Assembly: GCA_031383405.1 (NCBI GenBank) | Contig: JANMZO010000266.1 | Location: forward strand, 262 to 64,261 | From: Acidimicrobiia bacterium | GTDB taxonomy: Bacteria > Actinomycetota > Acidimicrobiia > Acidimicrobiales > JANYDT01 | Direction of reading: 5' to 3' | DNA: 64,000 nt | Part shown: in pieces, positions 3,746-24,689 of the stretch | Numbering within the stretch: position 1 is the stretch's first letter | Layout of the letters: each line of letters opens with the position of its first letter | Position numbers and translations under genes: made by a program | Notes under the pieces: model-generated | What the model saw: the letters and a program-made list of their open reading frames with translations, nothing else | Database searches by the model: none | What the model was told of the DNA's origin: nothing

Positions 3746-3757
3746 AAGGAGAATGAA

Positions 3758-4042: not shown

Positions 4043-4059
4043 CCGGGTGACGCAGCCGG

Positions 4060-4092: not shown

Positions 4093-4107
4093 GAGCCGTC
4101 GGACGCT

Positions 4108-5864: not shown

Positions 5865-5892
5865 GCGAACCCTGTCGTGAGTGCAACCGTGA

Positions 5893-5995: not shown

Positions 5996-5998
5996 GAA

Positions 5999-6028
5999 CG
6001 AGGGGCGCTCCGGATGGAACGCCCCTCG
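5999..6028 (-). terminator. intercistronic stem-loop just 3' of the SBP gene (cgaggggcg / cgcccctcg)
   Basis: Perfect 9-bp GC stem with a 12-nt loop, 18 nt downstream of the SBP stop. This is the typical attenuator/mRNA-stabiliser position in SBP-first ABC operons. Confidence 0.55.
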
Positions 6029-6045
6029 CTCCAACAGGGTGGCCG

Positions 6046-7479: not shown

Positions 7480-7641
7480 GTTCTTCCCCCTGGGTGATAC
7501 GCCGGATGGCGCGAATCGAACTGCGTGGCTACGACGGGCGATGACTAGTTCAGTACCGCGTTGCTGCGAAGTGAGGCGTTATCTTTTCACATCGGGAGGA
7601 TGCGTGCATCCACGACCGGCGTCATGGCTTTGCCTGCGCAC

Positions 7642-8775
7642 CTAGCCGATTTCGAGTTCGCTGATCAGAACGGCGCGTCCTTCATCGATTGAGCGGTGGG
7701 CGGCGACGCCGACCGCCACCGACCACAGCCCCTCCTCCACGGTTACGGCCGGTGCGGTGCCGTTTCGGATCGACTTGAGGAACCCGAGATGTTCGAGGTA
7801 GCTGGCCCCGTGGTGATAGCCAACGTGACCCACGCGTTCATCGGTAGAGGCGTCGAGTTCGATGATGGTCGGCTCGCCGGGCCAACCGTCGGGTCGACCG
7901 GCACCGCGCCGTCCGATGGTCACGGTACCTTCGGTGACCTTCGACTCGACCTTTCCCCGGTCGCCGACCGCGACCAACTCCTGCTCGTTTTTCGAGGCTT
8001 CGGCGAACATGCACAGATCAAGTAGTCCGCGGGCTCCGTTCGCGTAGTCGACGATGACGAACGCGTTGTCGAGAATGTCGGGGACCTCGCCGGCCGGGTT
8101 GCCCGGATAGCGCTCATCAAGGTGGTTCACGTTCTGCCCGCCGCTGGCGTAGACCCGGACGGGCCGCGACCCCACGGCCAGGTTCATCAGATCGAAGAAG
8201 TGACAGCACTTTTCGACGAGGGTGCCTCCGGTGTTCATCGAGAAGCGGTTCCAGTCCCCGACTTTGATGAGGAACGGAAACCGGTGTTCGCGGATGGAGA
8301 TCATCTTGAGGGTGCCGATGTTCTCGGTCGTGAGCTCCCGCAGAAACTGCGCAACCGGCGGCATGTAGCGGTACTCGAGCCCCATCCAGACGATGCCGCC
8401 GTGGGTTTTGGTGTGGGCGACAATCCTCATGGCGTCTTCGATCGTCGTACACAGTGGCTTTTCGACCATGACGTGGAGGCCCGGGGCCAGGGTGAAAATC
8501 GCGTCAAGAACTGCCGCGTGGGTGAAATTGGGGGTGCAGACGACCACGGCGTCGATCAGCCCCGACGCCAACATCTCCCGGTAGTCATCGAACTCGACCG
8601 GCGCGGGTCGACCCGGGAGGGCCGCCCTGGCCGCTTCGCGCGACGGACCGTGCGGATCGGCTATCGCGGTCACGGCGGTATCTGGGATGGCCGCCAGGTT
8701 CCGGATGTGCTCGCAGCCCATGAGCCCGGTCCCGATGATGCCGTAGCGGACTGCCGTTCCTTCGTTCACGGACAC
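7642..8775 (-). CDS. Gfo/Idh/MocA family oxidoreductase
   Basis: N-terminal Rossmann motif (RYGIIGTGLMGCEH) and the EKP motif (MVEKPLC). Confidence 0.85.
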   Translation of the reverse strand: MSVNEGTAVRYGIIGTGLMGCEHIRNLAAIPDTAVTAIADPHGPSREAARAALPGRPAPVEFDDYREMLASGLIDAVVVCTPNFTHAAVLDAIFTLAPGLHVMVEKPLCTTIEDAMRIVAHTKTHGGIVWMGLEYRYMPPVAQFLRELTTENIGTLKMISIREHRFPFLIKVGDWNRFSMNTGGTLVEKCCHFFDLMNLAVGSRPVRVYASGGQNVNHLDERYPGNPAGEVPDILDNAFVIVDYANGARGLLDLCMFAEASKNEQELVAVGDRGKVESKVTEGTVTIGRRGAGRPDGWPGEPTIIELDASTDERVGHVGYHHGASYLEHLGFLKSIRNGTAPAVTVEEGLWSVAVGVAAHRSIDEGRAVLISELEIG

Positions 8776-8937
8776 ACGGTAATGCGCGTAAGCGTCATCG
8801 GGCCTTCAGGGAGCTGGAAAATCGCGAGCCGACGCAAGAGTTGCGTGGAATCCCTCGCTGGGCTCGTACACGTTGGAAACACAGGATTCACAGTGACGCA
8901 AAGCTCGGGCAACAGCCGGGCCATATCGTCCACCCCG

Positions 8938-9669
8938 ATGTATACCGACTTGGATACGGTTTCTCCCGCCCTCCCCGGCGTGGAGTTCATCGCGAGCTCC
9001 GGTCGGCTCGGCGACGACGCGTATTCCCTGCTGAAGACCCGGATCCTGCGTGGGGAATTCCCGCTCAACATGCGGCTCGTGGAAACCCGCCTGGCGAAGG
9101 AACTCGGCTTGTCGCGCACTCCGGTGCGTGAGGCTCTGGCCCGACTGGCCGCGGAGTCGTTGCTTGCGCCGCATCCCGATGGAGGTTTTCAGCCGAGAAT
9201 TCCCGACACTGTCGCCATCCGGGAGCTGTATGAGGTTCGGGCCGCGCTTGAAAACCAGGCGCTCCAACGCCCCGGCCGCAACGGTGCCGTCCATGACCCG
9301 ATGATCCTTGAACCGCTCCGCGATTACTGGCTGGGGCTTCTGAACGGCACGCCCCCCGAGCCAACCCCGGAGTTCGTCCTCCTCGACGAGTCCTTCCACG
9401 TCACGCTTGCGTTGTCGGCGGGAAACCGTGCGACGGTCGAGTTGCTGACGCGGGTCAACGAGCGAATCCGGATTATCCGGATGCAGGACTTCCTCGACGA
9501 AACCCGGATCCGCCTGACCATTGAGGAGCATCTGGCCATAGTCACCGATGTTCTGGAGGGAAACATTCTTGCGGCCGAGATGGCATTTGCCGCTCATCTC
9601 GCCGAGTCGATGGCCTTCGTGGCGGAACGGGCCCAGGCGGCAATCGCCCGGATGGTGATCGGAGCATGA
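8938..9669 (+). CDS. GntR family transcriptional regulator (FadR/FCD subfamily)
   Basis: wHTH ([25 protein letters not shown]) plus a helical FCD-like C-terminus. I chose ATG 8938 (alternative GTG 8893). The rest of the 515-aa track ORF is antisense to the oxidoreductase gene. Confidence 0.82.
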
Positions 9670-11297
9670 ACATGAACGGCTCAAACGGCGAACCACTGCT
9701 CAAGGCCCGGGGGATCTGTAAATCCTTCGGCTCCGTTGTAGCCAACGCCGACGTCGACCTCACCCTGTTCCACGGCGAGGTTCACGCGGTGCTCGGAGAG
9801 AATGGAGCGGGAAAGTCGACGCTCATGAAGGTGCTCTTCGGTCTCTATCCGGCGGATGGCGGAACGATCGAGGTGCAAGGTCGGCCGGTCGCGATGGACA
9901 GCCCGGCCGTGGCCCGTGAGAACGGTATCGGCATGGTGTTCCAGGATCTCCGCCTGGTGCCGGCACTGACCGTCGTGGAGAACATCGGACTCTCGCTGAT
10001 TGACCGTGGGCTGCGATTTGATCGGAAATCACTGTCGAAGCAGATCGAGGCGGCCGCCCAGCAGTTCGGCTTGGCGGCTGATCCGGGGGCCACCGTTCGG
10101 GAGCTTTCGATCGGGGAGCGTCAGCGGATCGAGATACTGCGCGTGCTGATGACCGGCGCCAAACTCGTGATCCTCGACGAACCGACCAGCGTGCTCGCTC
10201 CCCAGGAAGTTGATCAACTGTTCGCAGGTCTCCGGTTGTTGAAAGCACAGGGGTTGGCCGTAGTTGTCATCACCCACAAACTGGCCGAGTCGCGCTCGAT
10301 CTCAGATCGCGTCACGGTACTTAGGGGCGGACGGCTGATCGTCGACGGCCAGGAGCCTTCGACGATGACCAACGACGAGCTGATCGAGGCGATGGTCGGC
10401 CGTTCCGTGCCGGGCCTTCCAGCGACCCGGGTGCCGACGCCGAAGGACCGTCCGATGGCGCTGCTGCTTGAGCATGTTTCGGTCCACGACCGCCGTCGGG
10501 GAACCCTGCTCGACGACATCACGCTCCATGTCGCAGCAGGCGAGATGGTCGGCATAGCGGGTGTCGCCGGCAACGGTCAGCTTCCGCTATACGAAGTCGC
10601 GCTCGGGCTCAGCGTCCCGTCGGAAGGTTCGCTTTCGATCGGTGGAAAGGCAATTGCCAAGCCAACGCCCCAAGCGGTTCTGGAAGCGGGGGCGGTGGGG
10701 GTTCCCGAGGATCCGATCCGCGACGCGGTGGTACCCGGACTGTCGGTCCACGAGCACGTGGCGCTCGACGCCCGTCGCTCGTTTCGCAAGGGCCTGAGCA
10801 TCGACTGGGCGAAGGTCCGGAACCACTATGCGGAAGGCAACAGCGTCAGTGAGTTGCGGGGCGCCAACGGTCACCGACTGCTTGGATCACTCTCCGGCGG
10901 CAACATTCAACGGGTCATGTTAATACGCGCGCTTAGTGCCTCCGGGGCCACCCTGGTAGTGGCGGCATATCCAAGCCGCGGTCTCGACATCGCCACAACC
11001 CGTCGTACGCAGGAGCTGCTACTGGAGAAACGGGCCGGTGGGGCGGGGGTATTGCTTATCTCCGAGGATCTCGACGAGTTGTTCGAGCTGTGCGATCGGA
11101 TTGCCGTTCTGCACGGGGGGAAACTGGTCGGTGTGGTTGACCCGAAAGTGTCCAATCGCTACGAAGTCGGCCGTCTGATGCTCGATGCCCACGGCACGGG
11201 ACACGGAGTGTCGAAAAACACGGCGGATTCGAGCGAAGCAACCGCAGGTGGCATCTCGTTGTCCGGTGCTCCCGTTTCCATCGGCGGTTCCCGGTGA
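9666..11297 (+). CDS. ABC transporter ATP-binding protein, duplicated ATPase (CUT2/BMP-type)
   Basis: Walker A (GENGAGKST), signature motifs ([16 protein letters not shown]) and two NBDs in 543 aa. The start overlaps the GntR stop (ATGA). Confidence 0.9.
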
Positions 11298-12385
11298 CAT
11301 CCGCCGATACCCAAGTCGTCATCGGGCCGGCGCTTTCGCCCGTTGACGTAGTCCGTTCGCCCCGGGCGCGTGCCATAAGGGCCGGTGCGTCTCGGTATCT
11401 TGCCGCATTCGCTGGCGCTCTGGCGTTGTTCGCGATCTTGATGCTGATCAAGGGCGTGAACCCGATCGCGGCATACAAGGACATGGTCGTTTCGACGTTC
11501 GGTGATTCTTCGCAAATCGCCGGAATACTTGTGCGGGCCACCCCGATCATCCTCGCCGGACTCGCCGTCAGCGTTCCAGCGCGCGCCGGGCTGATCAACG
11601 TCGGTGGTGAAGGGCAACTGATCATCGGCGGGGTCGCCGCCATGGGCGTGTCGCTTCTTGTAGACGGTCGTCTTTCCGGGCCCCTGTCGCTTGCGCTGAT
11701 GGGTCTGGCTGCAGCCGTGGCGGGGGGGCTCTGGTCCGGTATCGCAGCCCTGCTGCGCCTCAAGATCGGGATCGCAGAGTCGGTCACGACGCTCCTCCTG
11801 AACTACATCGCGCTGGACGTCATGTACTTCCTGATCTATGACCGGTGGAAGGACCGGGCCGGCTCGGGCCAACCGGCGACCCGCCCTGTAGCCCGTGGGG
11901 AACACTTGCCACTGTGGTCCGATACACGGGTCCATCTCGGGTTGTTGCTGGCCGTGTCTTGCGCGTTGCTCATTTTCGTCCTGTTCCGCAAGACCGGTTG
12001 GGGGTTTCAGCTCCGGGTGGTCGGAGGCAACATGGAAGCGGCCCGAAGGTCGGGTCTAAAAGTAAGTGCACTTATCGTAAGTGCAATGTTCGTAGGTGGA
12101 GCGCTGGCCGGGCTGGGTGGCTTTGCGCAGCTTGCCGGAGCCGAGTTCAAACTGCGATCGGGCTTTCTGGCCGGATACGGCTACGTAGCGTTCCTCGGGT
12201 CGTGGCTGGCCCGGCACCGCCCGATCGGGGTCACCCTTTCGTGCATCCTGCTTTCCGCCATCGCCATCACCGGCGACAGCCTCCAGCTTGACTCCAAACT
12301 CCCCGCTGCGAGCGTGAACGTTCTCATGGCGCTGGTGCTGCTCGGTGTCTTCGGATTCGGCCGGAAGCGAAAGAGCGCATCATGA
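11294..12385 (+). CDS. ABC transporter permease (BPD_transp_2 type)
   Basis: 363 aa, polytopic. Start and stop are coupled to both neighbours. Confidence 0.85.
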
Positions 12386-13299
12386 ACATGCTCACCGAAG
12401 TCATGACCGGCGGTGTCCGTGGTGGCACCTCGATCCTCTACGCCGCCCTCGGGGAGTCGGTGTCTGAGCGGTCCGGGGTCGTGTACCTCGGAACGGAAGG
12501 CTCCATCCTGATGGGAGCACTGGCCGGGTACGCGGTCGCATCGGAAACCGGTCAGGTCTGGTTCGGCGTACTGGCCGGTGCCGCTGCGGGCGGAGCCTTG
12601 GCTGCCGTGCACGCCTACCTGGTGCTGAGCCGGGGAGCCAACCAACTGGCCACCGGCCTGGTGGTGCTCTTTCTCGGCCTCGGCCTCACCTCACTCTTCG
12701 GAGCCAACTACGTACAGGCGCTGGCTCCCTCGTTCCGGCCCGTGGCCATTCCAGGGCTGTCGTCGATCCCGTTCTTCGGCACGGTTCTGTTCAAGCAGGA
12801 TCCGCTCGTGTACCTCTCGTTCGCCCTCGTGCCGGCCATGTGGTGGTTCATCAGCCGGAGCCGTTGGGGTCTTCTGCTCCGTGCCGCCGGTGAGCGCTCC
12901 GAGGTCCTGACCGCCACCGGCCACCGGGTGCTTCCAATCCAGTACGCCGCGGTCGTGGTCTGCGGCATGTTCGCGGGCATCGGTGGCGTTCACCTTTCAA
13001 CCGCCTACACCAAGTCATGGTTCGAAAACATGGCCCAGGGGCGAGGTTTCGTGGCGGTTGCGGTCGTCATGTTTGCGGCCCGGCAGCCGTTCAAGGTGGC
13101 GGCCGGTTCGTATCTCTTCGGTGCTGCGCTCGCGCTTTCACCTGCGCTTCAGGCCCGCGGATACGGCATCAACCAGTTTGCTCTCGACGCGGTCCCGTAT
13201 CTGGTGACCCTCGGGGTGCTTATCGTGCTCGGAAAGCGCCGCACCGCCGACCTTCCCGAAGGCCTGTCCAAGGTTTTCGAAGCGACACCCACCACTTGA
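12382..13299 (+). CDS. ABC transporter permease (BPD_transp_2 type)
   Basis: 305 aa, polytopic, with an ATGA overlap to the upstream permease. Confidence 0.85.
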   Translation: MNMLTEVMTGGVRGGTSILYAALGESVSERSGVVYLGTEGSILMGALAGYAVASETGQVWFGVLAGAAAGGALAAVHAYLVLSRGANQLATGLVVLFLGLGLTSLFGANYVQALAPSFRPVAIPGLSSIPFFGTVLFKQDPLVYLSFALVPAMWWFISRSRWGLLLRAAGERSEVLTATGHRVLPIQYAAVVVCGMFAGIGGVHLSTAYTKSWFENMAQGRGFVAVAVVMFAARQPFKVAAGSYLFGAALALSPALQARGYGINQFALDAVPYLVTLGVLIVLGKRRTADLPEGLSKVFEATPTT

Positions 13300-13313
13300 C
13301 CTTCACAACCAAC

Positions 13314-13365
13314 AAGCCCCACAACCAAGCCCCACAACCAAGCCCCACAACCTAGCCCCACAACG
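13314..13365. repeat. 13-bp C/A-rich tandem repeat (aagccccacaacc, 4 copies, last one degenerate)
   Basis: Read directly. Fills much of the 135-bp spacer between the last permease and the SBP gene. A fifth degenerate copy may start near 13301. Confidence 0.85.
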
Positions 13366-13434
13366 AGCAATTCCCCTACCCGCAACACCTACATCAGCAC
13401 TACCTAAACCTAGCAATCCTTCTGGAGGACAAAC

Positions 13435-14712
13435 ATGCGATCACGACTTCTCATTCCTGCGGCGATAGCCGCACTCTCACTGCTGGCCGTCGGCTGTTCC
13501 AGCGACAAGGCCGCCGACACCACGGCTGCCACCGAGACGGCCGCTGCCGAGACCGCTGCTGCCGACACGGCTGCTGCCGACACGGCTGCTGCCACCGAGA
13601 CGGCCGCTGCCTCCGAGACGGCTGCTGCGGCGGCGGAAACGACCGTCGCGGCTGCTGCGACCGGGACCGGGCCCGGTGCCGGGTCGAAGAAGGTCGGGTT
13701 CATCTTCGTAGGCCCGAAGGATGACTACGGTTACAACCAGGCGGCATTCCAGGGCAGCGAAGCGGTGAAGGCGAAGTTCCCGGACCTCGAAGTCCTCACC
13801 GCCGAGAATGTTCCGGAAGACGACAACGCGACCCGCATCATGGAAAAGATGATCTCCGATGGAGCGAAGATCATCTTCGCCACGTCCTACGGTCACCTCG
13901 ACCCGGCGATGAAGGTCGCTGCCGCTCACCCGGATGTCGCCATTGTGCAGCAGGGTAACTTCATCAAAGACGCGGTTCCGGCCAACGCTGGAACATACTT
14001 CGGCACCGTCTACGAGCCCGTGTATCTCGCTGGTATCGCGGCCGGAAAGGCCACGAAGTCCAACAAGCTGGGCTATGTGTACGCCTTTCCGATTCCCCAG
14101 ACCATCGCCAATATCAACGCATTTCAGCTCGGCGCGGCTTCGGTCAATCCGGCCATTCAGACCCTGGTTGTTAACACGTCGAACTGGTGTGATCCGGCGA
14201 AGCAGGCCGAAGCGGCCAAGAGCCTCTTCGCTCAAGGCGTCGATGTCATAACTCAGCACCAGGACTGCACGGCCACGATCACGAAGGCGGCTGAAGAGGC
14301 CGGCAAGATGGTTGTGGGCTACCACGCCGATGCATCGTCGCTCGCCCCCAAGGGCTGGGTGGCCGGTTCCGAATGGAGCTGGGGTGACCTCTACATCGAT
14401 ATTGTCAACACGGCGCTTTCGGGCAAGTTCACCGGCTCGAAGTTCAACGGCAACTACCGGGTTGGCTACAAAGACGGCGGAAACCCCTTTGTACAGTCGA
14501 AGTTCGGAACAATGATCGACGATGCGACAAAAGCGAAGATCGAAGAGGCCAAGAAGCTCATTTCGAGCCCAGAAGGTTCCCCCTTCACCGGCCCCATCAT
14601 GGCTCAGGACGGTAGCGAGATGTTCCCGGCTGGCGTACCTGATTACGCGTCGGTCGAATCGAAGAACACCGTCTTTGTCAAAGGCGTTGTCGGCGAGATC
14701 CCGAAGGGCTGA
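13435..14712 (+). CDS. BMP family (Med/PnrA-like) ABC transporter substrate-binding lipoprotein
   Basis: Lipobox (LLAVGC), a long Ala/Thr/Glu linker, then a BMP-like body (KVGFIFVGPKDDYGYNQA..). Confidence 0.88.
   Translation: MRSRLLIPAAIAALSLLAVGCSSDKAADTTAATETAAAETAAADTAAADTAAATETAAASETAAAAAETTVAAAATGTGPGAGSKKVGFIFVGPKDDYGYNQAAFQGSEAVKAKFPDLEVLTAENVPEDDNATRIMEKMISDGAKIIFATSYGHLDPAMKVAAAHPDVAIVQQGNFIKDAVPANAGTYFGTVYEPVYLAGIAAGKATKSNKLGYVYAFPIPQTIANINAFQLGAASVNPAIQTLVVNTSNWCDPAKQAEAAKSLFAQGVDVITQHQDCTATITKAAEEAGKMVVGYHADASSLAPKGWVAGSEWSWGDLYIDIVNTALSGKFTGSKFNGNYRVGYKDGGNPFVQSKFGTMIDDATKAKIEEAKKLISSPEGSPFTGPIMAQDGSEMFPAGVPDYASVESKNTVFVKGVVGEIPKG
13511..13660 (+). repeat. in-frame low-complexity tandem repeat encoding the (A-A-A-[DE]-T) linker of the lipoprotein
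   Basis: The gctgctgccgacacg-type 15-bp periodicity encodes AADTTAATETAAAETAAADTAAADTAAATETAAASETAAAAAETT. Confidence 0.8.
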
Positions 14713-14732
14713 TCCCCACCGGTGTGGTTGAT

Positions 14733-14758
14733 CGGGCGGCCGGGTCACCGGCCGCCCG
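14733..14758 (+). terminator. stem-loop after the SBP gene (cgggcggccgg gtca ccggccgcccg)
   Basis: Perfect 11-bp GC stem with a 4-nt loop. A T-run (cccattttt) follows ~10 nt downstream. Confidence 0.65.
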
Positions 14759-14945
14759 TGCAGTTCCCATTTTTAGTACCGTCCCTTTTCTGAATCGCCC
14801 TGGTAGTGCCTCTTCGCGTAGGAGACTGCGACGCCGAGCGCTACGGCAATCCGATACCCGTGGGAGATGTTGAAGAATTCGACATCACACTCTCCTGCGC
14901 TTCAGTGCACTAGTTCGTGTAAAACCTTTGATGTGAGGAGTTGGC

Positions 14946-15626
14946 GTGACCGGACCTGTTCTGGCCGAACCATACAACTGGCCCTATGACGGTGTCATCG
15001 ACCCCAACCGGACCGCGCTGGTCTGTATCGACTGGCAGACCGACTTCTGCGGCGTCGGCGGGTACGTGGATTCTATGGGTTATGACCTGTCGCTCACCCG
15101 TGCGGGTCTGGCGCCGACGGCCGTGGTTCTGGCGGCCGTGCGTGCGGCCGGTTGGAAAGTCGTGCACACGCGGGAAGGCCACCGGCCCGACCTCTCCGAC
15201 TGCCCACCCAACAAACTCTGGCGATCGAAAGGTATCGGGGCCGGTATCGGCGACGCAGGTCCGTGCGGACGCATCCTGGTCCGGGGCGAACCCGGTTGGG
15301 AGATCGTTCCCGAAGTCGCGCCTATAGCTGGAGAGTTGATCATCGACAAACCGGGTAAAGGCGCGTTCTACGCGACGGACCTCGACCTCCTCCTCCGAAC
15401 CGCCGGCATCACCCATCTGGTCTTCACCGGAATAACCACAGATGTATGTGTACATACGACTATGCGTGACGCAAACGACCGGGGCTACGAGTGCCTCCTG
15501 CTGTCGGATTGCACCGGCGCCACAGATTTCGGCAACTATGAGGCGGCCCTGAAGATGGTCACGATGCAGAATGGTGTATTCGGAGCGGTTGCACCGTCTA
15601 AGGCACTGTTGGACGTACTGGGGTGA
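14946..15626 (+). CDS. isochorismatase-like cysteine hydrolase (RutB/BiuH/TrtA-type amidohydrolase), copy 1
   Basis: Candidate D-K-C triad contexts: [30 protein letters not shown] lies 6 nt before GTG 14946. Confidence 0.85.
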   Translation: MTGPVLAEPYNWPYDGVIDPNRTALVCIDWQTDFCGVGGYVDSMGYDLSLTRAGLAPTAVVLAAVRAAGWKVVHTREGHRPDLSDCPPNKLWRSKGIGAGIGDAGPCGRILVRGEPGWEIVPEVAPIAGELIIDKPGKGAFYATDLDLLLRTAGITHLVFTGITTDVCVHTTMRDANDRGYECLLLSDCTGATDFGNYEAALKMVTMQNGVFGAVAPSKALLDVLG

Positions 15627-15630
15627 GCGC

Positions 15631-17424
15631 ATGAGGAGCGAAATGCCGGCATCGACCGCTGGATCGGATGCTCTCAACCCTGCCGGCTGGTCCGTTGCCG
15701 ATCATCTTGACGCACGTCGACGTGGGATGTCGGCGTCCGAGGTGATGGAGGTGGTCCTTCGGCAATTGGAGACGCTCGATGACCCAGCGGTGCTCATCGG
15801 CGCGCCCCTGCGTCGGTCCGCCATGGAGGCGGCTCTGGAACTGGATGGGAAGGAGCCTGCGGATTACCCGTTACACGGTGTGCCGTTTCTGGTGAAAGAC
15901 AACATTGATGTGCGGGGTATCGAGACGACGTGCGGATGCCCGTCTTTCGCGTACGTGCCTGACGTTGATTCCGAGGTGGTGGCCCGCCTGCGAGGAGCGG
16001 GGGCGATCCCGGTCGGCAAGACGAACCTCGACCAGTTCGCAACCGGCCTGGTGGGGACCCGCTCGCCGTACGGGATCCCCCGCAATCCGCTCAACGCCGA
16101 CCTGGTCCCCGGGGGATCCAGCTCGGGCTCGGCCGTGGGGGTCGCCCGCGGACTGGTGCCGTTCTCACTCGGAACCGATACCGCAGGGTCCGGGCGTGTG
16201 CCGGCTGCGATGTGTGGCATCGTCGGTCTGAAGCCAACCGTGGGGCGTTTCCCTTCGCGGGGAATCGTGCCGGCGGTGCGTCGGATCGACTGCCCGACCG
16301 TGTTTGCCAGATCGATGGCCGACGCCCGCCTCGTGGGCCGGATCATGGCCGGGTATGACCCGATTGATCCGTACTCGAAGCGACCGGTTTCGTCGAAGTC
16401 GGCGGTACGCATCTTCGGGATTCCAAAGGACCTTTCGGCACTTGCGCAGATCATGGACCCGGATGCTCTGCGCGCCTATCAAAACGTGATCGAGGGCCTT
16501 TCGAAGGTCTGGACCGTCGTCGAGATCGACCTGGCCCCGTACCTGGAGGCCGGCCGCCTCCTGTACGGTGGGCCATTCGTGGCGGAACGAACTGCTGCGG
16601 TTGGTGATTTTCTCGCAGCTGACCCGCCCGGGCTTGATCCGACCGTTGCGTCCATCATCCGGGCCGGCACGACCTACACGGCGGTGGAGGCTTATGGCAA
16701 CGAGTACCGCGTGTCGGACCTCCGGCGTCGGGTCGACGCTGACTGGTCGACGATAGACGCCATCATCCTACCCACCACGCCCGGAGTGGCGACTTTGACT
16801 GACGTTGCAGACGACCCCGTCGGGGCGAACATGCGGCTCGGGACGTTCACAACGTTCGTCAATCTGCTGGACCTGGCGGGAGTGGCAATTCCGGTTGGTA
16901 CGCGCGCTGATGGTCTCCCTTTCGGGGTGCAACTCATCGGTCCGGCCTGGACGGATGAGGCACTCGCCGACGTGGCGCAAATCCTGTTGGGCGAACCCGA
17001 GACCTTGGAGGGAGCCCGAGACGGAGAGCAGTTGATCACGGTAGTTGGTGCGCACCTTCAGGGCATGCCGCTGAACCATCAACTGACCGGCCGGGGGGCC
17101 CGCCTCGTTGCCGAAACCGAGACGGCCGGGTCATATCGGCTGTACGCGTTAGCCGGCACCGTGCCACCAAAACCCGGGCTTCTCCGGGTGGCCGAGGGTG
17201 GCCGAAGCATCCTGGTCGAAGTCTGGGCGATGTCGGTCGCCGAGTTCGGGTCCTTTACCGCCGAGATTCCCCGACCGCTGGGCATAGGGTCGGTGGAGTT
17301 GGCCGATGGAACCGTGTGCAAGGGCTTTATCTGCGAGCCGGACGGGTTCCCCGGTGGCACCGACATCTCCGAGTTCGGTGGATGGCGTGCGTATCGCGCG
17401 GCACAGGTCGGAGGTGGCGCGTGA
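15631..17424 (+). CDS. allophanate hydrolase (AtzF/amidase-signature family with allophanate hydrolase C-terminal domain)
   Basis: Amidase signature ([20 protein letters not shown]) plus a C-terminal domain ([27 protein letters not shown]). About 597 aa from ATG 15631. Confidence 0.85.
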
Positions 17425-18080
17425 ACGTCGACGCCCGCCCGTTTCCGTTCATCGCCGATGTGACAAGCACAGCGCTGCTGATCATTGACATGCAACGGGA
17501 CTTTCTCGAACCCGGTGGATTCGGGGAACTGCTCGGAAACGATGTGTCTTTGCTGCGAACGACGATCGGGCCGAACCGTCGCGTCCTCGACGCGGCTCGC
17601 GAGCTAGGGATGCTGGTCATCCACACGCGGGAGGGGCACCGACCCGACCTCACCGACTGTCCACCGGCCAAGTTGACGCGCGGAGGCACGACGTTCATCG
17701 GCACCGATGGCCCGATGGGCCGAATTCTTGTGCGCGGTGAAGCCGGTCACGAGATCATCCCGGAACTGGCACCGCAGCCCGGCGAACCGGTCATCGACAA
17801 GCCCGGCAAAGGGGCGTTCTACGCTACCGACCTAGAGTTGATTCTGCGTGAACGTCGGATCCGGTCTCTCGTCGTGTGCGGTGTGACAACGGAAGTATGT
17901 GTACATACGACCGTGCGCGAAGCGAATGATCGCGGATTCGAGTGTCTGGTTCTCGAGGATTGCGTCGGCTCATATTTTCCGGAATTTCAGCGGGTGGCCC
18001 TGGCGATGTTCGAGGCCCAGGGGGCAATTTTCGCCTGGGTTGGATCGTCCGACAGCTTCCTCGGGGCGTTGCCGGCGTGA
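17421..18080 (+). CDS. isochorismatase-like cysteine hydrolase, copy 2 (paralogue of 14946-15626)
   Basis: Shares [45 protein letters not shown] and TTEVCVHTT with copy 1 (roughly half the residues are identical by eye). GTG 17421 overlaps the upstream stop (GTGA). Confidence 0.85.
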
Positions 18081-18271
18081 TCCCGCTCATGGATCGACCG
18101 GGTGTCCAACGAATCCATGACGGCGCAACGTGCCGGGACCATCGGATTTCCAGCCGCGTACCCCCTTTCAGTCCCGTTCGCGTCGTACGGGCCCGGTCTC
18201 GTGGTTCGCTTGTCCCGGGGTCCCGAGGCGACGAAACCCGCGGCGAGATCCGCCTCATCACCTCTACCGCC

Positions 18272-19060
18272 ATGTATGCGACGACTATGGGGCGAGCAGA
18301 CCCGCAACGATGTTCTGACGTCGTGTCGCTTCACCCGGTGAGCGTCCCCCGGTCGCCGTTGTCGCTCCACGTCGAAGCGTGGGATGCCTTTGTCGACGCC
18401 GGTTTCGTCGTCGGTGACCGTGTCCTGCTTCGGGACGGTTCGCTGACGGTGTCGGGCGCATCGGGAAATGTCGTGGTGTGTGACTTCGCTGACGCGCCCG
18501 AGTGGACGGGTTCAACCGGGGCTGTTTCGATCTCCTCCCGTGCGGTCGATGACGCTCTTGGCCAACTCGAGATGCTGAATCAGCTGTCGTTGCGCGCGGC
18601 CCGGGCCCGTCTGGCGGACCGGGTCGACGCGCTGGTTGCCGCTCTCTGTGAGGGGAGCGATCCGTCGGTAAGGGCGGCGGTCCGGGGGCTTGTCGGCTTC
18701 GGGCCGGGTTTGACACCGTCCGGTGATGATGTGCTGGCGGGATGCCTTGTCGCACTGCTTCGTTGGAACGCAACGGTGTCAGTGGGCGATCGCCTCAAGC
18801 GGACGATAACGGAGCGTCTGGCGAGCCCCAACGCCACGGGCTTCGTCGGACGCCAGCTCCTCGAACTCGCCCGACTCGGGTTCACCCATGAAGCGCTCGA
18901 CGACGTTCTTCTGGCCCTGCCGCTCGCAGGATCGGCGCTCGCGTCGCCGGCGGAACGGGTCTTGTCCGTCGGAGCGACGTCCGGTGCCGATTCGTTACTG
19001 GGTGTCGAGTGTGCGTTACGGGTGTTCGTCGCTCTGACGGAACGAGACGTCCCCAAATGA
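18272..19060 (+). CDS. DUF2877 family protein (E. coli YlbF/AllH-like)
   Basis: About 262 aa from ATG 18272. The GFGPGLTPSGDDVLAGCLVAL motif and the position next to fdrA/DUF1116 genes support the call. The start is uncertain. Confidence 0.6.
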   Translation: MYATTMGRADPQRCSDVVSLHPVSVPRSPLSLHVEAWDAFVDAGFVVGDRVLLRDGSLTVSGASGNVVVCDFADAPEWTGSTGAVSISSRAVDDALGQLEMLNQLSLRAARARLADRVDALVAALCEGSDPSVRAAVRGLVGFGPGLTPSGDDVLAGCLVALLRWNATVSVGDRLKRTITERLASPNATGFVGRQLLELARLGFTHEALDDVLLALPLAGSALASPAERVLSVGATSGADSLLGVECALRVFVALTERDVPK

Positions 19061-20682
19061 CACAGTCGGCCGCCACGCAACCTGATTCTCCGGTGGACGC
19101 GACGGATGGACCGGTGGCCCGATCGACGGTGGTCACCAACCGCTACCGCGACTCCGTCGCACTGATGCGGATGGCTGCCGCGGCGGCGGAAATCGGCGGG
19201 GTACAGTCGGTCGCCGTCGTAATGGCGACGGAGGCCAACCTGCTCGACGCGGCGACGAAGGGTTTCGCCGTCGACTCCGACTCGTTAGGTGTCACCCCAA
19301 CGGCCAACGACGTGTTCATCGGCGTCATTGGCGAGGACCGTGCTTGCGCACTGGCCCTTGCGGTCGTCAGCGAGGACCTGGCCGGCAGCCGGGCATCGAC
19401 ACCGGCGGCGGGAACCTCCGGCGGTTCGCAAACAGAGGCCGCCGCGTCCATCTCTTCGGCATTTCAGCGGGCCGGAGGTTCAGCTGAAGCTCACTCGTCG
19501 CTCGACGGGGGGCTGGTCTCGGTTGCGGTGATCTCGGTGCCGGCGGCCTTTGCGGCGTCCGAGGCGCGTAAGGCGTTGGCTCTCGGTATGCACGTGATGC
19601 TGTTCAGCGACAACGTCGGCCTCGACGATGAGTGCGACCTGAAGCAACTGGCCGCGCAGCGGGGCCTGCTGCTCATGGGCCCCGACTGCGGCACAGCAAT
19701 GATCAACGGTGTGCCTCTCGGCTTTGCGAATGTGGTGCGGCGAGGGTCGGTAACGGTAATCGGCGCGTCTGGTACAGGCATGCAGGAGGTCATGGCCCAC
19801 CTCCATCGCCTGGGGTCAGGTGTCCGGCAGGCGATCGGTTGCGGCGGCCGGGACCTTCATCTGCGGGTTGGCGGTTCCACGATGATTCAGGCACTGCGTC
19901 TTGCTCAGGCTGACGGGGACGTCGAGGCGGTGGTTCTTGTTTCCAAGCCACCCGATCCTGCGGTCCTGAGGGCCGTAGCGGAAGCCGCCCGGCCCCTGAT
20001 CGCACGCGGCGTACCGGTTATCCTGTCGGCGACGGGTCTGCATAGCGGTGATCTGGCCGAAACCGGCCTCCACGTGGCTGACAGCCTTGACGACGCGGCC
20101 CGGATAGCGTCTCGCCTGGCATCTGCGGCTCCGGGTGGTTCGCTCGCAACGACGACCACGAGCGTGCCGCTCACGACCGCAGGTGCTCCGTTCGTGCTAC
20201 CCGGACGGGGTGAGACCAGTGTCGTGGGTGCGTTTTCGGGAGGAACCCTCAAGACCGAGTTCACCCACCTTCTTCGCGACCTTCCCGCGAACGTAAGCGT
20301 GCATGCGGTCGACTTCGGCGACGACGAATACACGAAGGGCCGACCCCATCCAATGATCGACCCGGGCGTTCGGGACCGTGAGGTCATCCGGGCAATGAGT
20401 GATCCGGCGGTGGCCGTGGTCCACTTCGATGTGGTCCTCGGCTTTGGCGCGGCATCTGATCCGATCGGTGGACTTCTCTCTCAGCTGGCCGTGATGCCTG
20501 CGAGCCGGTCGACGCTGCTATGCGCGCATGTTTTGGGAACGGAGTTGGATCCCCAGGGCCGTGACGGGATTGTCCGCCGCCTGACCGACGCAGGGGTGAA
20601 CGTCTTCGACACGAACGCGCAGGCTGCGAACTTCATCCGGTCGGCCGTCACGGGTCCCGAACGGGAAGGGCATGGGTCATGA
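19057..20682 (+). CDS. fdrA: FdrA family protein (succinyl-CoA synthetase alpha-like; E. coli FdrA/AllF-like)
   Basis: RDSVALMR, MLFSDNV, LLLMGPDCGTAMINGVPLGFANV, VIGASGTGMQE, GRPHPMIDP and VLGFGAASDP blocks match E. coli FdrA as I recall it. ATGA overlap with the upstream gene. Confidence 0.85.
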   Translation: MTQSAATQPDSPVDATDGPVARSTVVTNRYRDSVALMRMAAAAAEIGGVQSVAVVMATEANLLDAATKGFAVDSDSLGVTPTANDVFIGVIGEDRACALALAVVSEDLAGSRASTPAAGTSGGSQTEAAASISSAFQRAGGSAEAHSSLDGGLVSVAVISVPAAFAASEARKALALGMHVMLFSDNVGLDDECDLKQLAAQRGLLLMGPDCGTAMINGVPLGFANVVRRGSVTVIGASGTGMQEVMAHLHRLGSGVRQAIGCGGRDLHLRVGGSTMIQALRLAQADGDVEAVVLVSKPPDPAVLRAVAEAARPLIARGVPVILSATGLHSGDLAETGLHVADSLDDAARIASRLASAAPGGSLATTTTSVPLTTAGAPFVLPGRGETSVVGAFSGGTLKTEFTHLLRDLPANVSVHAVDFGDDEYTKGRPHPMIDPGVRDREVIRAMSDPAVAVVHFDVVLGFGAASDPIGGLLSQLAVMPASRSTLLCAHVLGTELDPQGRDGIVRRLTDAGVNVFDTNAQAANFIRSAVTGPEREGHGS

Positions 20683-22103
20683 TGGCCCCGGACGTACCTG
20701 TCGTGCGCGTGTTCAACGTCGGCGTCGAGGAGTTCTGTCGGGGCCCGGAGTCGGTGGGCGCCGAGGTTCATCAGATCGACTGGCGTCCCCCGGTCGATGG
20801 CGACCCGGAGACATCGGAAGTGTGCTCGCATCTACTGGCCGATCCACGGGTCGATGAAGCCAACCGCGAGGCGACTTCCCGATTCCTGGCCGTCGATCCG
20901 GTGGCGATCGATGTACAGAAGGCAGCTCAAGCGATCGCCGGCCTGGGCACCGGGCGGCCCACTCTGTTGCACGCGGGTCCGCCGATCGTGTGGGAGTCCA
21001 TGTGCGGACCGATGAGGGGTGCGCTCATAGGTGCGGTCCTGTTCGAGGGATGGGCATCCTCGGTCGACTCGGCTGTCGAGCTTCTCGGGAACGGTGGAGT
21101 CGTCCTCGAACCGTGCCATCATCACGGCGCGGTCGGCCCGATGTCGGGTGTGATCAGTCCTTCGATGCCGGTGTGGGTAATCGAGGATCCCGCCTCGGGT
21201 CGTCGGTCGTTCAGCAATCTCAACGAGGGCCTGGGCAAGGTGCTGCGATTCGGAGCGTTCGAACCGGCGGTGCTCGAACGGTTGCGGTGGATGGGCTCGG
21301 AACTGGCGTCGGTCCTCAGCGCCGCGATCCGTTCTCTCGGAGGCATCGCGCTTCGACCCGTGATGGCCCAGGCTCTCCACATGGGTGACGAGGTCCACAA
21401 CCGCAACTCGGCCGCAACCGGGCAATTCCTCAAACGCCTGGCCGCTCCGATCGCGCAGACCGACTTCCCAGGCGAAGCGATTGCCCGGGTGCTCCAATTC
21501 ATCGGGGGTAACGACCACTTCTTCCTCAACCTCTCGATGGCGGTCTGCAAGCTGCAACTCGATGCCGCCTCGGGCGTGGCGCACTCGACGATCGTCACGG
21601 CTATGGCCCGCAACGGCGTGAACTTCGGCATCCGGGTGAGCGGGACGGGCGACACCTGGTTCGAGGCGCCAGCGTCGATGATCAACGGTCTGTACTTCGC
21701 CGGCTTCGGACCCGACGACGCGAATCCCGACCTTGGTGACAGCGCGATCACCGAGACGGCGGGGCTCGGAGGGTTCGCGATGGCGGCCGCGCCGGCGATT
21801 GTCGGGTTCGTAGGCGGCACCGCGGCCGACGCGTTGGCCTACACGGTCCGCATGCGCGAGATCTGCGTGGCGGAAAACCCGGTTTTCACGATCCCGTCGC
21901 TCGGCTTCCGAAACACCGGTCTTGGAATCGACGTACGGCTTGTCATCGACACGGCGATCCTCCCGGTGATCAACACCGGCATCGCCCACCGCGAGGCCGG
22001 AATCGGTCAGATCGGCGCGGGCATCACGACCGCTCCCTTCGCCTGCTTTGCCGGAGCAGCGAAAGCGCTGGCCCGGGTGTCTCAGCCCGCTCCGGTTACT
22101 TAG
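20679..22103 (+). CDS. DUF1116 family protein (E. coli YlbE/AllG-like)
   Basis: LLHAGPP..W..MCGPMRGA..GA.LFEGWA, NLNEGLGKVLRFGA, GDSAITET.GLGGFAMAAAP and INTGIAHREAGIGQIGAG blocks match YlbE as I recall it. ATGA overlap with fdrA. Confidence 0.85.
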   Translation: MMAPDVPVVRVFNVGVEEFCRGPESVGAEVHQIDWRPPVDGDPETSEVCSHLLADPRVDEANREATSRFLAVDPVAIDVQKAAQAIAGLGTGRPTLLHAGPPIVWESMCGPMRGALIGAVLFEGWASSVDSAVELLGNGGVVLEPCHHHGAVGPMSGVISPSMPVWVIEDPASGRRSFSNLNEGLGKVLRFGAFEPAVLERLRWMGSELASVLSAAIRSLGGIALRPVMAQALHMGDEVHNRNSAATGQFLKRLAAPIAQTDFPGEAIARVLQFIGGNDHFFLNLSMAVCKLQLDAASGVAHSTIVTAMARNGVNFGIRVSGTGDTWFEAPASMINGLYFAGFGPDDANPDLGDSAITETAGLGGFAMAAAPAIVGFVGGTAADALAYTVRMREICVAENPVFTIPSLGFRNTGLGIDVRLVIDTAILPVINTGIAHREAGIGQIGAGITTAPFACFAGAAKALARVSQPAPVT

Positions 22104-22174
22104 CCCGATCTGCGTGCCCGTTCGAGAAACGACGACGTAAACGGGCGAGGGGGCTGCGAGGTACCCTGACGTTC

Positions 22175-23077
22175 ATGCAGAAACGTGCCTTGGGGAAAAC
22201 CGGGATCGACGTCGGCGAGATCGCCTTCGGATGTTGGCGTTTTGGTGGTGTCGATGTCGCCACCGCGCAGGAGCGGATCGAAACGGCTCTCGAAACTGGA
22301 ATGACGCTGGTCGACACAGCCGATGTCTACGGCCTCGACAACAACTGCCCCTGGGGCGGGGCCGAAGCGCTGCTGGGCGACGTGTTTGCTGCTGCACCGG
22401 CGTTGCGGGATCAGATCGTGTTGGCCACGAAAGGCGGCATCCACCTCGGTCCGGACCACCAGGGCCGCGAAGGTCTCGGGGTGCCCTACGAGACTTCGCC
22501 CGACTGGATCACCCACGCTTGCGAGGAGTCGCTGCGTCGTCTGAAGGTGGATGTGATCGATCTTTACCAGATCCACCGGCCCGACTTCCTCGAGCATCCG
22601 GCGTCGACTGCGAGAGCGTTGAGCGGCCTCGTCGCTTCCGGAAAGGTGAAGCACGTCGGGGTGAGCAATTACACGGCGTCGCAGGTGTCGGCGTTGCGGG
22701 CCCATCTCGATGTGCCGCTCCAGACGGTCCAGCCTGAGTTTTCCGTGAGCCGACTCGACTCGATTGACGATGGTGTGCTCGACCAGGCCATGGAACTGGG
22801 CCTCACGCCGCTTGCCTGGAGCCCGCTCGGTGGCGGCAGTGTCTTGTCGGCGGCCGGCGCGCTCGGGGCGCAACTGGATTTGTTGGCAAGCGCGCATAGC
22901 ACATCCCGAACCGGCGTTGCGTTGGCGTTCGTGCTCGCCCACCCGGCCCGAATCATCCCGATCATCGGAACGGGCAGACCCGACCGCATCCGGGAAGCGG
23001 CCGAAGCGGCCGACATCACGCTCACGAAGGCAGAGTGCTATTCGCTCATCGCCGCATCTGGAAGGAAGCTCCCCTGA
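22175..23077 (+). CDS. aldo/keto reductase
   Basis: LGKTGIDVGEIAFGCWRFG, DTADVYG, LYQIHRPD and VGVSNY motifs. Confidence 0.85.
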   Translation: MQKRALGKTGIDVGEIAFGCWRFGGVDVATAQERIETALETGMTLVDTADVYGLDNNCPWGGAEALLGDVFAAAPALRDQIVLATKGGIHLGPDHQGREGLGVPYETSPDWITHACEESLRRLKVDVIDLYQIHRPDFLEHPASTARALSGLVASGKVKHVGVSNYTASQVSALRAHLDVPLQTVQPEFSVSRLDSIDDGVLDQAMELGLTPLAWSPLGGGSVLSAAGALGAQLDLLASAHSTSRTGVALAFVLAHPARIIPIIGTGRPDRIREAAEAADITLTKAECYSLIAASGRKLP

Positions 23078-24141
23078 TGGAAATCGCCTGGTTCTCCGCG
23101 CTTTGTGACGACGACTACGAGTTCCTAGGTGTCCCCGACGCGTCGTTGCGTAGTTCGTGGGAGCACTGCTCCGACATTGTGAAACGGGCCGAAGCGAACG
23201 GCTTCGACAACGTTCTGCTCCCTTCAGGTTACGAGCTCGGCATTGACTCCACGGCGTTTGCGGCCGGTATTGCGACGCAGACATCTCGTATCAATCTTCT
23301 TCTCGCCGTCCGATGTGCCGAGATGTGGCCGCCACAGTTGGCGCGTCAGATCGGTTCGATCGACCGCATGGCGAAAGGTCGCCTGCTCGTCAACATCATC
23401 TCAAGTGATCTTCCCGGCTCGGTTGTCGCAAGTGGCCCCCGATATCGCCGCAGCACCGAGGTCATGCAGATCGTACGCTCGTTGCTGAACGGCGAAGCGG
23501 TCGACTTCGAGGGTGAGTTCTATCAGCTCAAGGTGTCAGTACCAAGCGCGCATACGGTTTCTGGAACATGTCCGCCGTTCTACTTCGGGGGTCTGTCCGA
23601 CGATGCTCGTGAGTGCGCAGCGGCCGCGGCCGACGTGTACCTCATGTGGCCCGACACGATTTCCGCCGTCACATCGATCATGGATGACATGAAGGGGCGG
23701 GCCGCGGAAAAGAACCGCACCCTGCGCTTCGGTTACCGGGTGCACGTGATCGTGCGGGAGACCGAGTCAAAGGCGCGCGACGCGGCCGACCGTCTGCTGT
23801 CCAAGCTCGATGCCCAGGTGGGCGACGCAATCCGGGCCAAGTCGCTCGACTCCCAGTCGGCTGGCGTCCGGCGCCAGGCCGAGCTGCGGGAGTCGGCCGC
23901 CGCAGGTGACGGCTACGTGGAAGAGAACCTCTGGACCGGCATCGGCCGGGCCAGGTCGGGTTGCGGCGCGGCGATCGTGGGCGACCCCGACCAGGTTCTG
24001 GCTAAGCTCAGGATGTACGAATCCCTGGGCATCGAAGCGGTCATCCTGAGCGGCTACCCGCACGCCGACGAGTGCGACCTTTTCGCCCGATACGTGCTTC
24101 CGCGTCTCGATCACGCTCCGATCCATCTTGCTGCCGGGTGA
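23077..24141 (+). CDS. LLM-class FMNH2-dependent monooxygenase, SsuD (alkanesulfonate monooxygenase)-like
   Basis: Blocks parallel to E. coli SsuD: FYFGGLSDDA, FGYRVHVIVRETESKA, NLWTGIGRARSGCGAAIVGD, VILSGYPH. ATG 23077 overlaps the AKR stop (TGATG). Confidence 0.82.
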   Translation: MEIAWFSALCDDDYEFLGVPDASLRSSWEHCSDIVKRAEANGFDNVLLPSGYELGIDSTAFAAGIATQTSRINLLLAVRCAEMWPPQLARQIGSIDRMAKGRLLVNIISSDLPGSVVASGPRYRRSTEVMQIVRSLLNGEAVDFEGEFYQLKVSVPSAHTVSGTCPPFYFGGLSDDARECAAAAADVYLMWPDTISAVTSIMDDMKGRAAEKNRTLRFGYRVHVIVRETESKARDAADRLLSKLDAQVGDAIRAKSLDSQSAGVRRQAELRESAAAGDGYVEENLWTGIGRARSGCGAAIVGDPDQVLAKLRMYESLGIEAVILSGYPHADECDLFARYVLPRLDHAPIHLAAG

Positions 24142-24158
24142 GCCCGACGGAGTGAGAC

Positions 24159-24689
24159 CTATATCGCCGCGAAGGCGTCGGTGACCCACTTCCAGTGCAT
24201 ACGGCCGTGGCCGGCATTGGCCGCAAGCACGCCACCTACGGTGCCATCGGCCCACGGCGCGCCCGGAAGCGTCTCGTTGAGTTGTGCCTCCGTCAGCTCG
24301 GAAAGAAGAGTCAGCGTCACCGCCCGCGACGCCTGACCGAGGGCGACAACATCGTCAAACGACTTTCCCATGTGCTTGTGCTGCCATTCGTCGGTCATGG
24401 CGTGCACTGAGGCCATTATTTCGGGCATCGTGCGTGGGTTGCCCGCATCGTCGTTACGCAGCCCAACCGGGTTGGCGTGACCGGCGACATGGCGTCGGAC
24501 CATCGCCGCGAAGTTGTGCTCGATCAACGACAGGTGGGCCAGATGGTCGAGTGCCGTCCACATGTTCGACGGATCGTGTTCGCTCGGTGTCAGCCCGGTT
24601 TGCAGCTGTTCCTCGGTCAGCCCCCGGTACTCGTTGAGCAACCAGACCCGGCCCTCATGAAGTTCAATCTCAATGTCAGTTCGTCGCAT
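24159..24689 (-). CDS. DinB family (DinB_2-like) protein
   Basis: 176 aa helical bundle with His-rich motifs (LDHLAHLSLIEHNF, AGHGRMHW). Confidence 0.65.
   Translation of the reverse strand: MRRTDIEIELHEGRVWLLNEYRGLTEEQLQTGLTPSEHDPSNMWTALDHLAHLSLIEHNFAAMVRRHVAGHANPVGLRNDDAGNPRTMPEIMASVHAMTDEWQHKHMGKSFDDVVALGQASRAVTLTLLSELTEAQLNETLPGAPWADGTVGGVLAANAGHGRMHWKWVTDAFAAI

Follow-up and report, generated by a model that had tools for sequence, protein, structure and literature searches.

Triuret hydrolase (TrtA) converts triuret to carboxybiuret and discriminates about 10^4-fold against biuret. In the described route, carboxybiuret is converted to biuret either spontaneously, with a half-life of about 20 min, or by TrtB, biuret is hydrolysed to allophanate by biuret amidohydrolase (BiuH), and allophanate is broken down to NH3 and CO2 by allophanate hydrolase (AtzF) (PMC7948467). 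TrtA was found as a paralogue of about 50% identity that co-occurs with biuH (Tassoulas, Elias & Wackett, J Biol Chem 2021; PMC7948467), and operons with TrtA, BiuH, and AtzF in Herbaspirillum sp. BH-1 and Rhizobium leguminosarum 3841 free all four triuret nitrogens (PMC7948467). Both triuret and biuret are urea-fertiliser impurities (hundreds of millions of pounds a year applied) and uric acid oxidation products (PMC7948467). Here, we analysed a 64-kb stretch of contig JANMZO010000266.1 (64,000 nucleotides, hereafter the window) from an Acidimicrobiia-like actinobacterial metagenome-assembled genome (MAG), whose closest named relatives are Acidimicrobiia/Acidimicrobiales MAGs. The window carries three tightly packed genes that probably encode BiuH, AtzF, and TrtA, followed directly by three genes resembling allH, allF, and allG.

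The operon of Herbaspirillum sp. BH-1 and R. leguminosarum bv. viciae 3841 unites the same three enzyme families as the window, but in the window the order is biuH-atzF-trtA, trtB is lacking, and allH-allF-allG are found at the 3′ end; the host is an Acidimicrobiia-like actinobacterium, whereas Herbaspirillum and Rhizobium are plant-associated proteobacteria. The clusters of comammox Nitrospira and ammonia-oxidising archaea (mSystems 2025; PMC12625717) contain GntR, bmpA-nupABC, biuH, atzF, a putative trtA, and allFGH without trtB, essentially as in the window, which differs in the absence of allK and in belonging to another phylum; that paper reports no biochemical tests (PMC12625717). Co-location of trtA-biuH-atzF, bmpA-nupABC, gntR, and allFGH(K) had already been reported for comammox Nitrospira (PMC12625717). 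The oxamic transcarbamylase AllFGH (FdrA/YlbE/YlbF) of Escherichia coli, described together with AllK (Kim & Kim, AEM 2024; PMC11326118), has three subunits with homologues in the window, and the likely common chemistry would be carbamoyl transfer from an N-acyl urea to phosphate. In contrast to E. coli, the window has neither allK nor the allantoin genes allB/C/D/E nearby, and the genes are part of a polyuret operon, not of an allantoin regulon. The core pathway and operon type have been known since 2020/21 and the extended form was noted in 2025; here they occur in a new host lineage. The three core genes are as follows.

14946..15626, + strand: predicted biuH, biuret amidohydrolase (ORF1), from the NCBIfam equivalog NF050097, identity, clade, and residues
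15631..17424, + strand: predicted atzF-type allophanate hydrolase (ORF2), from Pfam Amidase and AH_C and from TIGR02713
17421..18080, + strand: predicted trtA, triuret hydrolase (ORF3), from structure match, clade, and specificity residues

The spans of the two outer genes were confirmed, both with a GTG start (ORF1, 226 aa; ORF3, 219 aa), and ORF2 begins with ATG and encodes 597 aa. At the ORF1/ORF2 junction, the TGA stop codon (15624-15626) is followed by gcgc and the ATG at 15631, leaving a 4-nt gap; at the ORF2/ORF3 junction, the start of ORF3 overlaps the stop of ORF2 in a GTGA (17421-17424). An earlier note made from the letters of this DNA (the sequence-only reading) had described precisely this packing, and the sequence agrees with it at both junctions. 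The same reading placed the end of the element at 18080. Its three-ORF core was retained, but this boundary was not, because the operon runs on into allH-allF-allG, with transporter and regulator genes upstream. The whole is a 12-gene cluster on the + strand comprising a GntR regulator, a Bmp-type ABC transporter, biuH-atzF-trtA, and allH-allF-allG, in which the junctions from biuH to allG range from -4 to +8 nt. Moreover, relatives with a TrtA of 79-89% identity to ORF3 have the same layout: regulator, transporter, biuH, atzF, trtA, allH, allF, allG.

ORF2 contains the Pfam Amidase and AH_C domains and scored 690.9 bits on the allophanate hydrolase equivalog TIGR02713 (cut-off 511). It also aligned over its full length, C-terminal domain included, to the Granulibacter bethesdensis enzyme 4GYR (534 bits), and the amidase-signature motifs KDNIDV, GGSSSGS, and GTDTAGS are kept between the two proteins. 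Together, these results support the earlier assignment of the middle ORF as an AtzF-type allophanate hydrolase with its C-terminal domain. Neither urea carboxylase nor urease, cyanuric acid hydrolase, or carbamate kinase was found in the 64 kb, for which all ORFs of at least 150 aa were scanned or accounted for (the longest being FtsK, 969 aa, and PNPase, 938 aa) and tblastn was used; the claim that urea carboxylase is missing thus holds across the whole window.

The two outer ORFs both match Pfam Isochorismatase (141 and 157 bits) and are 54% identical to each other (114/213 residues, E = 7e-76), with a run of 24 protein letters (not shown) and TT[DE]VCVHTT in common. The initial description of the pair, as isochorismatase-like paralogues that are about half identical and share long identical blocks, was accurate, and the observation as a whole lies far beyond chance. 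ORF1 scored 412.3 bits on the BiuH equivalog NF050097 (cut-off 370). Among solved structures, it matched Rhodococcus sp. Mel BiuH 6XJM with 387 bits and 78% identity and R. leguminosarum BiuH 6AZO with 348 bits and 68% identity, compared with 217 bits for TrtA and 102 bits for RutB. In addition, ORF1 has the triad D29, K135, and C168 and the BiuH-type residues Y40, Y46, D166, T193, and V211.

In contrast to ORF1, ORF3 remained under the cut-off of the BiuH equivalog (278 bits vs. 370), and its best solved-structure match was TrtA of Herbaspirillum sp. BH-1 (6XIX/6XJ4/6XJE; 272 bits, 61% identity), followed by the two BiuH structures (251 and 223 bits) and RutB (110 bits). In Herbaspirillum numbering, TrtA has the triad D24/K129/C162 and contacts its ligand through E72, K132, and Q202′, and the second shell distinguishes F35, N41, A134, E160, Y187, and I205 of TrtA from Y, Y, S, D, T, and V of BiuH (PMC7948467). 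The corresponding positions were compared in a MAFFT alignment of 115 sequences. Both ORFs retain the D/K/C triad and the ligand contacts E72, K132, and Q202, whereas at five positions (F35, N41, E160, Y187, and I205) ORF3 is TrtA-type and ORF1 BiuH-type throughout; position A134 does not discriminate here, since ORF1, ORF3, and Rhodococcus sp. Mel BiuH all have Ala. In its own numbering, ORF3 has the triad D23, K127, and C160, the triuret-contact equivalents E71, K130, and Q200, and the second-shell residues F34, N40, E158, Y185, I203, and A132, along with F28, so that every compared position is TrtA-type. Its V155-T156 pair corresponds to V157-T158 of TrtA, which is cis in TrtA and is matched here by sequence only. 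Furthermore, the first four discriminating positions (35, 41, 160, and 187) read F/N/E/Y in 85/85 TrtA-like sequences from other genomes and Y/Y/D/T in 24/24 BiuH-like ones.

Phylogeny with characterised enzymes had been suggested as a check of the two paralogues, and a neighbour-joining tree of 115 sequences, including characterised BiuHs, TrtA, and RutB, was built. ORF1 fell inside the BiuH clade with 6AZO and 6XJM (100% bootstrap), and ORF3 was placed outside that clade, with the Herbaspirillum TrtA. The sequence-only reading had also held that the outer proteins look at least as RutB-like as BiuH-like and might act on different, undescribed ureido substrates, and here it was contradicted. 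RutB, of the pyrimidine Rut pathway, has the isochorismatase-like cysteine hydrolase fold and the D-K-C triad in common with ORF1 and ORF3, and the shared fold alone explains the weak matches that favour such a view (114.6 bits for ORF1 and 114.1 bits for ORF3 on the RutB equivalog TIGR03614; 32-34% identity to E. coli RutB). However, both scores are far from the cut-off of 378, ORF1 passes the BiuH cut-off, RutB is unlike both ORFs at 11/15 compared active-site positions, the first- and second-shell substrate residues of the ORFs all match TrtA or BiuH, and neither rutA nor any of rutC-G was found in the 64-kb window. A RutB-like identity was ruled out on model scores, identity, and active-site residues, and it is scarcely credible that the outer genes encode RutB-like or other uncharacterised ureido-amidohydrolases for undescribed substrates. 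Another reading takes the operon as the tail of cyanuric acid (s-triazine) catabolism, in which carboxybiuret would come from ring opening by AtzD/TrzD and not from triuret. BiuH and AtzF do also serve a route from cyanuric acid via biuret, and Rhodococcus sp. Mel BiuH, the closest characterised relative of ORF1, is encoded beside AtzD (PMC7948467). We consider this origin very unlikely: an AtzD/TrzD-like ORF is absent from the 64 kb and none was seen in the conserved layout of the relatives, and a TrtA with the full triuret-binding signature favours triuret as the entry compound.

We therefore favour, with a probability of about 0.85, the reading in which ORF1, ORF2, and ORF3 are biuH, atzF, and trtA and make up the described hydrolytic pathway for polyuret nitrogen. 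TrtA would deamidate triuret to carboxybiuret, which would lose CO2 to give biuret; since the locus is without trtB, this decarboxylation is assumed to be spontaneous in this organism. BiuH would then deamidate biuret to allophanate, and AtzF would convert allophanate to 2 NH3 and 2 CO2. Such a hydrolytic triuret/biuret route would explain why an allophanate hydrolase occurs here without urea carboxylase. The logic proposed earlier, with two sequential cysteine hydrolases feeding AtzF (triuret to carboxybiuret/biuret to allophanate to NH3 and CO2), is in line with the published TrtA/BiuH/AtzF pathway and with the clean split between the paralogues. The identities, residues, packing, and conservation of layout in relatives are shown by the sequence analysis, and from these we infer the actual substrates of the three enzymes.

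Several points weigh against this reading. The whole-sequence margin of ORF3 over BiuH is modest (272 vs. 251 bits), so the TrtA call rests on the specificity residues and the clade placement. In the tree, the rooting on RutB was unstable, and the TrtA-like sequences formed a clade in 12% of bootstrap replicates. The closest characterised relative of ORF1, Rhodococcus sp. Mel BiuH, is a slow, generalist enzyme that also shows some activity on triuret (PMC7948467), and the division of labour between the two hydrolases could be less strict than assumed. Moreover, the conversion of carboxybiuret to biuret has to be assumed spontaneous with trtB absent, and the canonical pathway has no role for allH-allF-allG, while carbamate kinase is absent from the 64 kb. 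The three additional genes are listed below.

18089..19060, + strand: allH-like gene (DUF2877 / AllH domain; Pfam AllH 63.5 bits), starting 8 nt past the trtA stop
19057..20682, + strand: allF/fdrA-like gene for a succinyl-CoA-synthetase-alpha-like subunit (Pfam CoA_binding and Ligase_CoA), with an ATGA overlap with allH
20679..22103, + strand: allG-like gene (DUF1116; Pfam AllG 312 bits), with a 4-nt overlap with allF

The three subunit families of oxamate carbamoyltransferase (FdrA, AllG, and AllH) are thus encoded together in the window. The AllH-like protein is 34% identical to E. coli AllH over the C-terminal domain. The AllF-like protein is 36% identical to E. coli AllF, with the motifs GPDCGT, IGASGTG, and GRPHPMIDP in common, and scored 357 bits on the NCBIfam FdrA subfamily, under its cut-off of 433. 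The AllG-like protein and E. coli AllG/YlbE share 51% identity across 411 residues. The gene order is H-F-G, unlike the allF-G-H-K order of E. coli, and tblastn found no carbamate kinase in the window. Homologues of E. coli AllC, AllD, AllE, GlxK, and YbbY were found neither in the window nor in any of 86 related loci. The absence of oxalurate-making genes nearby means that there is no local source of oxalurate.

The related loci comprised a close set and a survey set. For the close set, six loci were fetched for five close ORF3 homologues. For the survey set, one genome per GTDB species was taken, and the best 80 of at least 598 stretches encoding a relative were used; their TrtAs are 64-82% identical to ORF3 and come from many phyla. 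Neighbouring genes were typed by BLAST against the window proteins in flanks of up to 10 kb, and 54/80 loci had at least 5 kb on both sides. Small-protein neighbours that are AtzH-like (PF11533) were counted as trtB-like, in agreement with the trtB/atzH/hpxZ tree in the supplement of PMC12625717. The co-occurrence statistics below are not phylogenetically corrected, and the 80 loci are biased toward relatives of ORF3. The counts were as follows.

allF or allG near trtA: 24/80 loci
biuH near trtA: 20/80 loci
allF/allG and biuH together near trtA: 2/80 loci
AtzH-like (PF11533), trtB-like gene near trtA: 19/80 loci

All six close-homologue loci have trtA followed by allH-allF-allG (6/6), and allF/allG was located on the strand of trtA and downstream of it in 21/30 loci. 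Close TrtA relatives also occur in Chloroflexota, Verrucomicrobiota, Planctomycetota, and many Proteobacteria. A trtB-like gene was found in 0/24 of the allF/allG loci vs. 19/56 of the others (Fisher p = 4e-4), and in 0/17 vs. 17/37 when only loci with full flanks were counted (p = 4e-4). Likewise, biuH was present in 2/24 vs. 18/56 (p = 0.026; full flanks 1/17 vs. 15/37, p = 0.011), leaving 22/24 allF/allG-linked loci without it. In contrast to this exclusion of trtB and biuH from allF/allG loci, a pattern that appears to be new, biuH and trtB-like genes were positively associated with each other, with an odds ratio of about 4 (p = 0.016; full flanks 4.8, p = 0.022). Carbamate kinase was found in 14/24 of the allF/allG-linked loci, and AtzF or a stand-alone AH_C protein in 20/24. 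For example, Leucobacter viscericola has a 73% identical TrtA, after which come allH-allF-allG and genes for a stand-alone AH_C protein, for an NCS1 permease, and for carbamate kinase; neither biuH nor an amidase-type atzF was found at its trtA locus. Cultured bacteria with a trtA-allHFG-carbamate kinase module include L. viscericola (CP049863), Caballeronia udeis LMG 27134, and Aeromonas enteropelogenes CECT 4487. The allFG-linked TrtAs clustered in a BLOSUM62 neighbour-joining tree. A robust subclade of these proteins was rejected, since strict monophyly received 14% bootstrap support and was absent from the Kimura-distance tree.

Two readings of the allH-allF-allG genes were given similar weight, with the remaining weight assigned to other roles. 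Our preferred guess, a tentative one, is that in this setting the AllHFG-like enzyme has a function other than that of an oxamate carbamoyltransferase and may use phosphate to cleave the N-carbamoyl (ureido) bond of the TrtA product carboxybiuret, or of allophanate, releasing carbamoyl phosphate and replacing the TrtB/BiuH branch. Carboxybiuret and phosphate would yield carbamoyl phosphate and allophanate, and possibly allophanate and phosphate would yield carbamoyl phosphate and carbamate. ATP would be gained through carbamate kinase, which, like a stand-alone AH_C protein, would accompany AllHFG in most carriers; having both branches, the window would be a rare hybrid. The linkage to trtA argues for this phosphorolytic role, being present in 6/6 close loci and in 24/80 species across several phyla, with many loci lacking biuH and 14/24 having carbamate kinase, as do the co-occurrence of allF/allG never with trtB-like genes (0/24) and rarely with biuH (2/24), the translational coupling of allHFG to trtA, and the absence of allD, allC, and allE homologues near these loci. 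In addition, carboxybiuret and allophanate may be suitable substrates as N-carbamoyl carboxylates like oxalurate. Comammox contigs with allFGHK have independently been noted to be without trtB (PMC12625717). However, this line of argument is purely comparative, and phylogeny is a confounder of the co-occurrence, the TrtAs linked to allFG being most alike among themselves. An AllG about 50% identical to E. coli AllG is also compatible with unchanged oxalurate specificity, the window is without carbamate kinase, and the stand-alone AH_C proteins in loci without AtzF are left unexplained by the scheme.

It is equally possible, and again doubtful, that two pathways lie side by side, with trtA-biuH-atzF serving triuret/biuret and AllHFG being a genuine oxamate carbamoyltransferase that would act on imported oxalurate. 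This is the reading given for comammox, where allFGHK was read as a neighbouring oxalurate pathway (PMC12625717). Oxalurate is a purine oxidation product, and the two pathways would be co-regulated because both would salvage purine-derived ureide nitrogen. The match of the subunits to Pfam AllH and AllG and to the FdrA architecture, together with the 51% identity of AllG to the characterised E. coli subunit, is consistent with such a function, and Bmp-type transporters are usually tied to purine nucleosides (PMC12625717). Nevertheless, an oxalurate-making (allD) or oxamate-disposing gene was found near none of the 86 loci, and the order H-F-G without allK is unlike that of E. coli. Furthermore, the tight coupling to trtA and the exclusion of trtB/biuH would be unexpected for unrelated pathways. 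A literature search within the searchable library found no paper proposing a mechanistic link between trtA and AllHFG.

The finding that an Acidimicrobiia-like actinobacterium has all of trtA-biuH-atzF in one operon, together with a dedicated transporter, widens the known hosts, as the original paper stressed plant-associated bacteria. The core is not conceptually new, and the main remaining interest lies in what the AllHFG-like genes do and in improved annotation of the TrtA-type 'cysteine hydrolases': NCBI calls these TrtA proteins 'cysteine hydrolase', and the Joint Genome Institute (JGI) often 'biuret amidohydrolase'. If AllHFG does act on carboxybiuret or allophanate, substrate-level phosphorylation would allow ATP to be gained from polyurets. 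That would amount to a second, energy-conserving branch of triuret catabolism and to a second physiological substrate for the recently named 'oxamate carbamoyltransferase' family.

The genes and elements upstream of biuH are listed below.

8938..9669, + strand: GntR/FCD-family transcriptional regulator (Pfam GntR and FCD), first gene of the cluster
9666..11297, + strand: ABC transporter ATPase (Pfam ABC_tran, two stretches = two ABC domains)
11294..12385, + strand: ABC transporter permease 1 (BPD_transp_2; Pfam PF02653), with a 4-nt overlap with each neighbour
12382..13299, + strand: ABC transporter permease 2 (BPD_transp_2; Pfam PF02653)
13435..14712, + strand: Bmp/PnrA-family substrate-binding lipoprotein (Pfam Bmp 137.6 bits; lipobox LAVGC)
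14733..14758, + strand: perfect 11-bp G+C-rich hairpin (inverted repeat, 100% complementary), then a U-rich stretch

The regulator probably starts at ATG 8938 (243 aa), as suggested by a start-codon survey and by the length of its homologues (238-246 aa), and its stop overlaps the ATPase start by 4 nt. The position of the ATPase is kept in the related loci L001 and L003-L005. In the Bmp lipoprotein, an Ala/Thr/Glu-rich low-complexity linker, encoded by a 15-nt tandem repeat (starting at 13509 or 13522 and ending at 13628; ~6.7 copies), follows right after the lipobox. This Bmp-type importer is probably the uptake receptor for triuret/biuret, a ligand suggested by its genomic context. In nitrifiers, a transporter of the same type adjoins trtA-biuH-atzF, and purine nucleosides are the usual association of Bmp-type transporters (PMC12625717).

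The binding-protein gene and biuH are separated by a spacer of 233 nt (14713-14945) with a fold z of -4.6, compared with 77-116 nt in related loci. The hairpin at 14733-14758 starts 21 nt past the stop codon of the binding-protein gene and may act between the transporter genes and biuH as a terminator, an attenuator, or a stabiliser of the mRNA. An Rfam scan at the gathering threshold gave no riboswitch or other known RNA, either in the 233-nt spacer or elsewhere in the window, and in a scan of 8700-24300 for sigma-70 promoters and intrinsic terminators the number of sites was not above that in shuffled sequence. Two antisense ORFs, at 13477-14748 (- strand, 423 aa) and 14910-15677 (- strand, 255 aa), face the Bmp gene and biuH. 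Because they lie directly opposite these two genes, both of which have family matches, they are most likely high G+C artefacts and not genes.

Around the cluster (1-8800 and 26500-43800) lies a housekeeping backbone, with a DHH phosphoesterase and truB, followed by pnp, an M16 peptidase, dapB, dapA, the RNase J gene, ftsK, and others. Just upstream of the cluster (about 4100-8775), the opposite strand encodes a sugar-type ABC transporter along with a GFO/IDH/MocA oxidoreductase. Two genes that follow allG on the same strand (22175-24141), one for an aldo-keto reductase and one for a luciferase-like monooxygenase, were considered as cluster members and rejected, since relatives carry other genes there.

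Additional neighbours were observed at the survey loci. A membrane protein of ~520 aa (e.g. L012:10727-12283) is encoded near trtA in 60/80 loci, directly downstream where the position was checked, and is absent from the window. It had no match in Pfam, NCBIfam, or PDB and probably represents an undescribed family of triuret/ureide permeases, in place of which the window would use the Bmp-type ABC transporter. Stand-alone AH_C-domain proteins (L002:14578-14976 and 12 other loci, e.g. L008, L016, L026, and L027) accompany trtA-allHFG-carbamate kinase modules without an amidase-type AtzF. Finally, five loci from Solirubrobacteraceae and other actinobacterial MAGs (L014, L019, L028, L071, and L078) have a divergent AllG-like (DUF1116) gene beside trtA without AllF; the encoded proteins are about 40% identical to the AllG of the window, and their genes are mostly transcribed divergently from trtA.

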